From the IMG/VR virus record IMGVR_UViG_2654587569_000016: a stretch of 23,925 nucleotides of DNA; one strand, 5' to 3'. The DNA comes from a virus (lineage: Duplodnaviria; Heunggongvirae; Uroviricota; Caudoviricetes). The stretch's first letter is position 1, and the number at the start of each line of letters is the position of its first letter. A model generated the notes under the pieces. It saw only the letters and a list, made by a program, of their open reading frames with translations, ran no database searches and had not been told where the DNA came from. Below, in pieces: positions 16,198 through 16,873 of the stretch. The position numbers and the translations under genes are program-made.

Positions 16198-16494
16198 GTG
16201 AGGCTTCCGATCGAACAGGTACTGCGTAATCAGCCAGCGCTGTCCGCGTTTACGTCAGAAATTAATGCGATGAGCGCAACCATTATCGGTCAGCTGGATA
16301 CGAACTTTAAAATTGGTCGTCGTGCGGCGTTACGTGAGATCGAGGATGTGAAACACGATACGCGTGAAGCGGAAGATGTGCTGGATGTGGCGGTGGCCAT
16401 TGCGGAGGCAGAAGGCGAAATTGAGCCGGAAGAGCGCAAGGTGCTGGAAGAGATTGCCGGTGTTCTGGGTCTTCGTATGGATAATCACCTGTGA
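16198..16494 (+). CDS. TerB-like small protein, possibly a truncated remnant
   Basis: C-terminal segment VAIAEAEGEIEPEERKVLEEIAGVLGL matches the TerB-type repeat pattern; only GTG or a poorly supported ATG available as start; shorter than typical TerB domains. Confidence 0.35.
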   Translation: MRLPIEQVLRNQPALSAFTSEINAMSATIIGQLDTNFKIGRRAALREIEDVKHDTREAEDVLDVAVAIAEAEGEIEPEERKVLEEIAGVLGLRMDNHL

Positions 16495-16873
16495 CGGTAA
16501 AACTGCGCCTGGTTGTGGCTGCACTCCTGCTGTTTCTGGTGGTGATGGTGGATTTCACCAGCAGAATCATGTCGGTGCTGGCGGATGGGGTGCTGGTCTG
16601 CGGCATTGTGGTATTGCTGTGGTCGGTGATAAAAAGAAACAGCATAAATAATGCTTGATTTTTTTATTTGCTGTTTATTAAAAACACTACTGCATGGTGA
16701 ATCCCCCTGTGCGGAGGGGCGACTGGTGTAGGTAGCATTTATTATGTTATAGGCAAGCCGACGCGGGTTCAGTGACACCGGCTGAATTCACCGGGAGGCA
16801 CCCGGCACCATGCGCTGCAACAAAAGTGTTATTTCTGTTTTTCTCAAACTATCATCGTTATCCCTTTATTTCC

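Follow-up and report, generated by a model that had tools for sequence, protein, structure and literature searches.

A TerB-family pseudogene and an orphaned small membrane-protein gene in a lambdoid prophage are very probably a decayed tciA-tciB cassette

A preliminary description of a 23,925-nucleotide viral sequence (IMG/VR record IMGVR_UViG_2654587569_000016; this whole stretch is called the window below) had noticed a short TerB-like open reading frame with no convincing start, positioned after phage tRNA genes and running into a 55-codon hydrophobic frame, at a place where toxin genes would sit. It proposed that the pair could be a decayed cargo gene or a small membrane-active peptide. 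Here, we asked which of these the locus is, and what the two frames were before any decay. We were able to confirm the coordinates of both frames (Table 1) and their overlap, in which the GTGA at 16491–16494 serves both as the TGA stop of the 98-codon upstream frame and as the GTG start of the small frame. The small frame was unannotated only as far as the ORF track used for that description is concerned, as RefSeq lists it as “DUF3927 family protein.” The locus is very probably a decayed tciA-tciB accessory cassette in which tciA is dead and tciB is open but orphaned, and not a toxin.

The window is a lambdoid prophage, and the cassette lies inside its Q-dependent late operon. Positions 1–1400 form the integrase/excisionase end and are 99.7% identical to E. 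coli prophages adjoining yecE. The late-operon gene order is Q-like antiterminator, methylase, tRNAs, tciA, tciB, STnc100 small RNA (sRNA), nanS-p remnant, and holin. A promoter scan found no sigma-70-like promoter upstream of tciA or tciB, and promoter-like sites in the region were no commoner than in shuffled sequences. Judging from its position, tciAB is presumably expressed from pR' under Q.

Table 1. Features of the tciA-tciB locus and its late-operon surroundings, in window coordinates
Feature	Position	Strand	Remarks
Q-like antiterminator	12155-12520		phrog_79
DUF4236 gene		-	between Q-like gene and phrog_331 gene
phrog_331 gene			between DUF4236 gene and methylase
N6/N4 methylase	14563-15621		before the three tRNAs
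Three phage tRNA genes: CAT ileZ-like, Arg-TCG, Arg-TCT	15662-15905	+	directly 5' of tciA
tciA pseudogene (TerB family)	16076..16494	+	alignment, three-frame translation, Pfam TerB, phrog_632
98-codon tciA remnant frame, GTG start	16198..16494	+	tciA codons ~47-143
tciB (DUF3927, phrog_1470), GTG start	16491..16658	+	55 codons, intact frame
STnc100-family sRNA gene	16666..16846	+	Rfam RF02076
Intrinsic-terminator-like hairpin and T-run	16874..16900	+	closes tciAB-sRNA block
nanS-p remnant	16981-17091		between terminator and holin
S21-type holin	17259-17519		followed by DUF1327 gene, endolysin, spanin, terminase

The STnc100 segment begins 8 nt past the tciB stop and scores 117 bits against RF02076 (gathering score 47; E = 1.9e-26). 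A 101-codon ORF (16772–17077) overlaps this sRNA gene, has no family match, and is probably not coding. In phage 434, a 62-aa “membrane protein” is annotated across the equivalent stretch. Further downstream, little is left of nanS-p, a SASA-family esterase gene located 3' of tciB in relatives; ~25 nt at the 5' end and ~72 nt at the 3' end remain, with an internal deletion of ~1.75 kb relative to positions 4102–5952 of locus L001. Since this neighboring gene has been deleted too, the whole cargo region of the prophage appears to be eroding.

Next, we examined the identity of the upstream frame. The 98-aa translation scores 25.9 bits against Pfam TerB (PF05099; gathering score 24.4) and covers only profile positions 63–109 of 118. 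Against phrog_632 (“tellurite resistance”), it aligns over positions 50–143 of 143 with E = 3.4e-41. We aligned window positions 16040–16700 to the intact cassettes of E. coli 2013C-3492 and phage JLK-2012. The reconstructed full-length TciA scores 49.1 bits against Pfam TerB and E = 6.4e-68 against phrog_632, and its residues 14–137 align end-to-end with Klebsiella pneumoniae TerB (PDB 2JXU; E = 2.3e-6). NCBIfam gave only a weak DjlA match for TciA (E = 1e-4). Intact tciA is a single-domain TerB homolog of ~143 aa whose start is the ATG at 16076, and the remnant frame is without approximately the first 45 residues (about one-third) of the fold aligned with 2JXU.

In the window, tciA is a pseudogene. 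The alignment and three-frame translation show a nonsense change at codon 20 (GAA to TAA, 16133–16135) and two deletions with a net shift of −13 nt, one of 2 bp (between 16197 and 16198) and one of 11 bp (between 16208 and 16209). The frame that begins at the ATG stops at codon 20 and again at 16199–16201, and the rest of TciA is in another frame; an uninterrupted frame of ~142 codons from its own start and ribosome binding site is thus not present. Of the two acidic (A/S)DG-x3-E half-motifs of TerB, the first (ADGECEASE) is destroyed by the two deletions and the adjacent D39G, and the second (AEGEIEPEE) is kept in the remnant. The ribosome binding site at 16062..16069 (+) is also altered, reading AAAGGAAC in relatives and AAAGAAAC here. 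This is a G-to-A change in the Shine-Dalgarno (SD) sequence (AAGGAA to AAGAAA) that takes the predicted anti-SD pairing from −5.6 to −0.9 kcal/mol. Among 48 unique tciA alleles from 85 loci, only the window and locus L009 carry it. The alignment to relatives therefore bears out the proposal of a decayed cargo gene for the TerB-like frame, which is the 3' part of a tciA whose reading frame was interrupted by a nonsense codon and shifted by both deletions.

A separate variation is seen at the A-run of tciA codons 7–8 (window 16094–16099), which is A6 or A7 depending on the allele. In A7 alleles (L001, L010–L012, and others at the equivalent position), the ATG frame is lost, and RefSeq has the gene begin 5 nt further on, at a TTG (LVFLVKK...). 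Either the altered start codon is tolerated, or the A-run is prone to slippage.

The gene pair itself is common and already known, being annotated in public E. coli records. Using megablast, the region was matched in 1,586 of 5,426 complete E. coli genomes, where the annotation reads “tellurite resistance TerB family protein” followed by “DUF3927 family protein”; phage records use tciA and tciB. No copy of the window's lesion allele was found by megablast in the 5,426 complete E. coli genomes (best match, 90.8%), and an exact-match scan of GTDB species representatives did not find the deletion junction. We located the window allele only in IMG/VR locus L009 and through exact protein look-up. 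Locus L009 matches the window at 99.92% identity over 6,162 bp and shares all of the tciA lesions. The exact 55-aa sequence is present on 31 E. coli contigs as “DUF3927 family protein,” and the exact 98-aa sequence on 19 as “TciA/TerB-like protein.” Since an independent assembly shares the lesions and the remnant protein is found on 19 contigs, they are not sequencing errors. The absence from complete E. coli genomes and GTDB representatives indicates that the window allele is a minor lineage.

Damaged tciA genes are also frequent in other alleles. Among 80 IMG/VR loci, tciA is open over its full length in 39, has a TAG at codon 46 in 38, and is truncated in other ways in 3, including L009. 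The TAG (TCC TAG AAA, at approximately window position 16205) is carried by L013–L054 and others, behind several different 5' ends. Therefore, these losses are not independent, and the TAG-46 allele probably arose from one mutation and spread by recombination among E. coli prophages. For the same reason, we do not claim selection for tciB alone. The family phrog_3920 is a 48-aa C-terminal TciA fragment, the gene-caller product of TAG-46-type alleles.

The 55-aa frame matches Pfam DUF3927 (PF13064) with E = 3.7e-16 and 59.3 bits (cut-off 25), over TciB residues 3–51 and profile positions 2–50 of 53, and it matches phrog_1470 (“TciB-like”) with E = 6.5e-28. A profile search of PDB sequences and a search of NCBIfam each returned no match for TciB. 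The hydrophobic character first described holds, as hydropathy analysis gives two hydrophobic stretches (~5–20 and ~26–46) with a conserved DFTSR between them and basic residues toward both ends (K4/R6 and K48/R49), in a protein within the 50–60 aa range. An AlphaFold 2 model built from a 12-sequence alignment is all-helical (pLDDT 90), with one continuous helix and no hairpin. TciB may span the membrane either once or as a hairpin.

Not all of the conserved TciB residues are kept in the window. In an alignment of 11 TciB sequences, K48 is invariant, and K4, D21, D32, G33, and P45 are nearly so; the window protein keeps D21, D32, G33, and K48, and P45 is replaced by serine. P45 is present in 10 of 10 homologs compared, from E. 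coli to Pseudomonas phages. P45S is also seen in a few other E. coli tciB alleles, and in L012 the S45 allele sits beside an open tciA frame, so the substitution need not be disabling. The sequence before tciB is GGAG in the closest intact relatives and GGAT here, the same change producing E140D in TciA, and the predicted SD pairing is −3.1 kcal/mol here versus −6.4 kcal/mol in intact relatives. As tciA is untranslated past codon 20, coupling of tciB to it is lost, unless ribosomes start at the GTG at 16198. Most likely, the window tciB is weakly expressed, non-functional, or only residually functional.

We compared tciB between divergent alleles and obtained pN/pS values of 0.174/0.436 against JLK-2012 and 0.134/0.321 against L008, which indicate a coding gene under constraint. 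In the close E. coli clade, polymorphisms number 7 nonsynonymous to 3 synonymous in tciB and 12 to 24 in the last 90 codons of tciA; these counts are small, and they suggest that constraint on tciB is relaxed in close E. coli prophages. Judged by its sequence relatives, the small frame is a real, conserved gene for a predicted membrane protein, and neither an accidental ORF nor a fragment of tciA.

The same two genes are paired well beyond the lambdoid prophages of E. coli. The GTGA junction is found in 85 of 88 related loci, with a tciB of 55 codons in 80 of them. In lambdoid and diverse other phages, a TerB-type gene is followed by a TciB-type gene at a spacing of −7 to +4 nt. The junction reads TGATG in P1, TAAATG in the N4-like virulent phage Pollock, and GTGA in the lambdoid phage Fostie; the pair is also present in D6. 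In P1, Pollock, and Fostie, tciB is preceded by a weak SD (~−3 kcal/mol). Together, this weak SD and the overlapping junctions suggest that the two genes are translationally coupled, so that their products would be made in stoichiometric amounts.

Pantoea phage Nafs113 and Pseudomonas phage Nican01 have the pair as well, with the small gene unannotated in both. In Nican01 (L096 1335–1514, PP179318.1), it is a 60-codon ORF 3 nt past TerB and a clear TciB homolog (…DSVSRIISMCADG…IWPLIKK). In Erwinia jumbo phage ChrisDB, the TerB protein shares 68% identity with that of E. coli, and 3 nt on lies the gene of a 59-aa protein, gp7, that has only the hydrophobic layout and a W-P-L-I-K end in common with TciB. 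Pfam misses gp7, and the Nican01 homolog is unannotated; therefore, the DUF3927 family is wider than its present model. In Pseudomonas phages AF and Zuri, TerB is followed by a different small protein with a single span, which may be an alternative membrane partner; it has a conserved C-x2-YG-x-QTERET-x-YA-x-FVGCMV domain (L093 1332–1553 in AF, L095 1343–1546 in Zuri). One Vibrio phage has no such small protein. A GTDB scan for TciB relatives using short degenerate patterns returned only three loci. TerB/tciA adjoins phage tRNA clusters in P1 (L091), D6 (L097), JLK-2012 (L002), ChrisDB (L092), and the window (15662–16494), a recurring linkage that may reflect only shared cargo regions.

The cassette agrees with P1 tciA-tciB in gene order, in the overlap of stop and start, and in protein size, and both adjoin phage tRNA genes. 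P1 TciB is a DUF3927 protein (E = 7e-31), and P1 TciA is 42% identical to the reconstructed TciA over residues 1–107. However, P1 also has tciC and carries its genes in the ban region, whereas the window has no tciC, has the pair in a lambdoid late operon, and has an inactivated tciA. The names of P1 tciA-tciB(-tciC) reportedly go back to Lobocka et al. 2004 and were given by homology only. For the origin of the tci names, we relied on GenBank notes and the Pollock announcement.

The intact E. coli cassettes of JLK-2012, PPyecE_EH1910, and 2013C-3492 are 91–96% identical to the window at the DNA level and have the same flanks, with the tRNAs upstream and the STnc100 segment and nanS-p downstream. 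On the TciA side, the window differs from them by the nonsense codon, the two deletions, the SD mutation, D39G, L139M, and E140D. On the TciB side, the differences are A8V, P45S, L52I, and H53N, and nanS-p is deleted in the window.

TciA belongs to the same fold family (PF05099) as TerB of the terZABCDE tellurite/phage/colicin resistance cluster (R478; K. pneumoniae). However, terZ, terA, terC, terD, and terE were all absent from the vicinity of tciAB in the window and in intact relatives, and the partner of TciA is a 55-aa protein, not TerC. With no TerC/D/Z/E and with a methylase, tRNAs, sRNA, holin, DUF1327 gene, endolysin, and spanin as neighbors, identity with a ter operon was rejected. 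The “tellurite resistance” label of tciA is inherited by homology only.

TerB proteins have been described as amphitropic, moving between the cytoplasm and the membrane, and have been proposed to survey the membrane; DjlA has a TerB-like domain beside its membrane helix. A TerB domain combined with a membrane element is common to DjlA, Shango SngA, Bunzi BnzA, Dionysus DinB, and tciAB. Unlike these, tciAB has no J domain, helicase, ATPase, or pore-forming partner. Furthermore, tciAB is phage-encoded, including by virulent phages, whereas TerB defense systems are found in host defense islands. A PADLOC search returned no family match to TciA or TciB up to E = 1. Identity with Shango, Bunzi, or Dionysus was rejected, as there was no PADLOC match and the partner genes are absent; Dionysus, which post-dates the PADLOC version used, was rejected by gene content.

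The remark that toxin genes would sit at this place proved apt. The window flanks match those of stx2AB in the Stx2 phage Stx2a_1447, with an identical tRNA order. The order in Stx2a_1447 is methylase, ileZ, argN, argO, stx2A, stx2B, a homolog of window 16674–16812, nanS-p, and holin. Going by these flanking sequences, the tciA-tciB cassette occupies the exact slot of stx2AB in Stx2-converting phages, between argO and the STnc100-like segment upstream of nanS-p/holin. The STnc100 segment itself also lies 3' of stx2B in Stx2 phages. Presumably, stx2AB and tciAB have Q-dependent late transcription in common, but they are without any sequence or functional relationship, and their sole link is being cargo at one insertion point. 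We considered tciAB as a substitute toxin in place of stx and rejected this; it is merely another cargo cassette in the late-operon slot.

In the explanation that we propose, the tciA of intact relatives encodes a soluble single-domain TerB-fold protein of ~143 aa, and their tciB an inner-membrane protein of 50–60 aa whose start overlaps or abuts the tciA stop. Translation of the two would be coupled, and the pair would function while the late genes are being expressed. Their conserved adjacency suggests that the products are partners, and by analogy with DjlA and amphitropic TerB proteins, they may act jointly at the membrane. TciB would then anchor or partner the TerB-fold TciA at the cytoplasmic membrane, like the tethered TerB domains of the DjlA type. 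Candidate roles for the pair are the handling of membrane or ion stress and the exclusion of other phages or colicins. In the window, tciB has lost its coupling partner and has a weakened SD and P45S.

Several other readings of the locus were weighed against the decayed cassette. The main rival, possible but in our view rather unlikely, is that tciB encodes a small membrane protein that works by itself and still functions here, with tciA dispensable and repeatedly lost. The intact frame in the window is consistent with this, as are the presence of tciB without tciA in phage 434 and the upkeep of the 55-codon length in nearly all loci although tciA is damaged in 41 of the 80 IMG/VR loci. Locus L005 (GCA_902845325.1) even retains the window's tciB allele although just the final 48 tciA codons are left ahead of it. 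However, the tciB stop is lost in L005, the 38 TAG alleles probably trace to a single mutation, the 7:3 ratio in the close E. coli clade looks relaxed, and the window allele has both P45S and a weakened SD. More improbable is that the 98-codon remnant is translated from the GTG at 16198 as a truncated TerB half-domain and still drives coupled translation of tciB. An SD-like AGGTGG (pairing −7.2 kcal/mol) precedes this GTG, and the frame is open to the GTGA, keeps the second acidic motif, and scores just above the Pfam cut-off. The SD-like element is only ~3 nt from the GTG, though, and the encoded product would be without the first third of the fold. The TAG-46 alleles have no in-frame start after their stop until that of the 48-aa phrog_3920 fragment; therefore, an open frame of 98 codons is to be expected of a recent pseudogene anyway.

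The membrane-active peptide of the preliminary description would make tciB a type I toxin or else a lysis factor resembling a holin (class II) or an antiholin. The protein is small and very hydrophobic, and its gene precedes the lysis genes in the late operon, but we consider this highly improbable. There is no match to a defense or toxin family, PADLOC included, and the gene accompanies TerB in phages of both temperate and virulent lifestyle; DUF3927/TciB adjoins TerB away from the lysis genes in P1, D6, Pollock, and the jumbo phage. The prophage already encodes a separate S21-type holin, an endolysin, and a spanin, the promoter scan placed no site on the minus strand opposite tciB, and a CRISPRi screen scored P1 tciA/B/C as non-essential. 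The idea that both frames are pieces of one disrupted gene draws on their overlap and on the plain truncation of the upstream frame, and it can be set aside with near certainty. In intact relatives, there are two distinct ORFs that overlap by the same 4 nt, as the alignment and the GTGA junctions in 85 of 88 loci make clear, and the products belong to different Pfam families. The decayed tciA-tciB cassette is the reading that we retain.

The window itself, a pseudogene with an orphaned partner in an eroding prophage cargo region, matters little. The cassette as such, however, ranks among the commonest cargo carried in the stx slot by E. coli lambdoid prophages and is also found in virulent phages, and the pairing of TerB with a small membrane gene, together with the repeated decay of tciA, offers a simple experimental handle. 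A wider reading, which we put forward only tentatively and regard as doubtful, is that TciA-TciB is a conserved two-part membrane module used in infection and that, where tciA is lost in E. coli prophages, the surviving tciB alleles still have an independent function. If true, the module would combine a TerB-fold protein that is amphitropic with a very small anchor ending in an invariant W-P-x-x-K. It would be used by temperate lambdoid phages, P1, and D6, by virulent N4-like phages, and, with a more distant small partner, by a jumbo phage, and it may serve to sense or protect the inner membrane or to exclude competitors.
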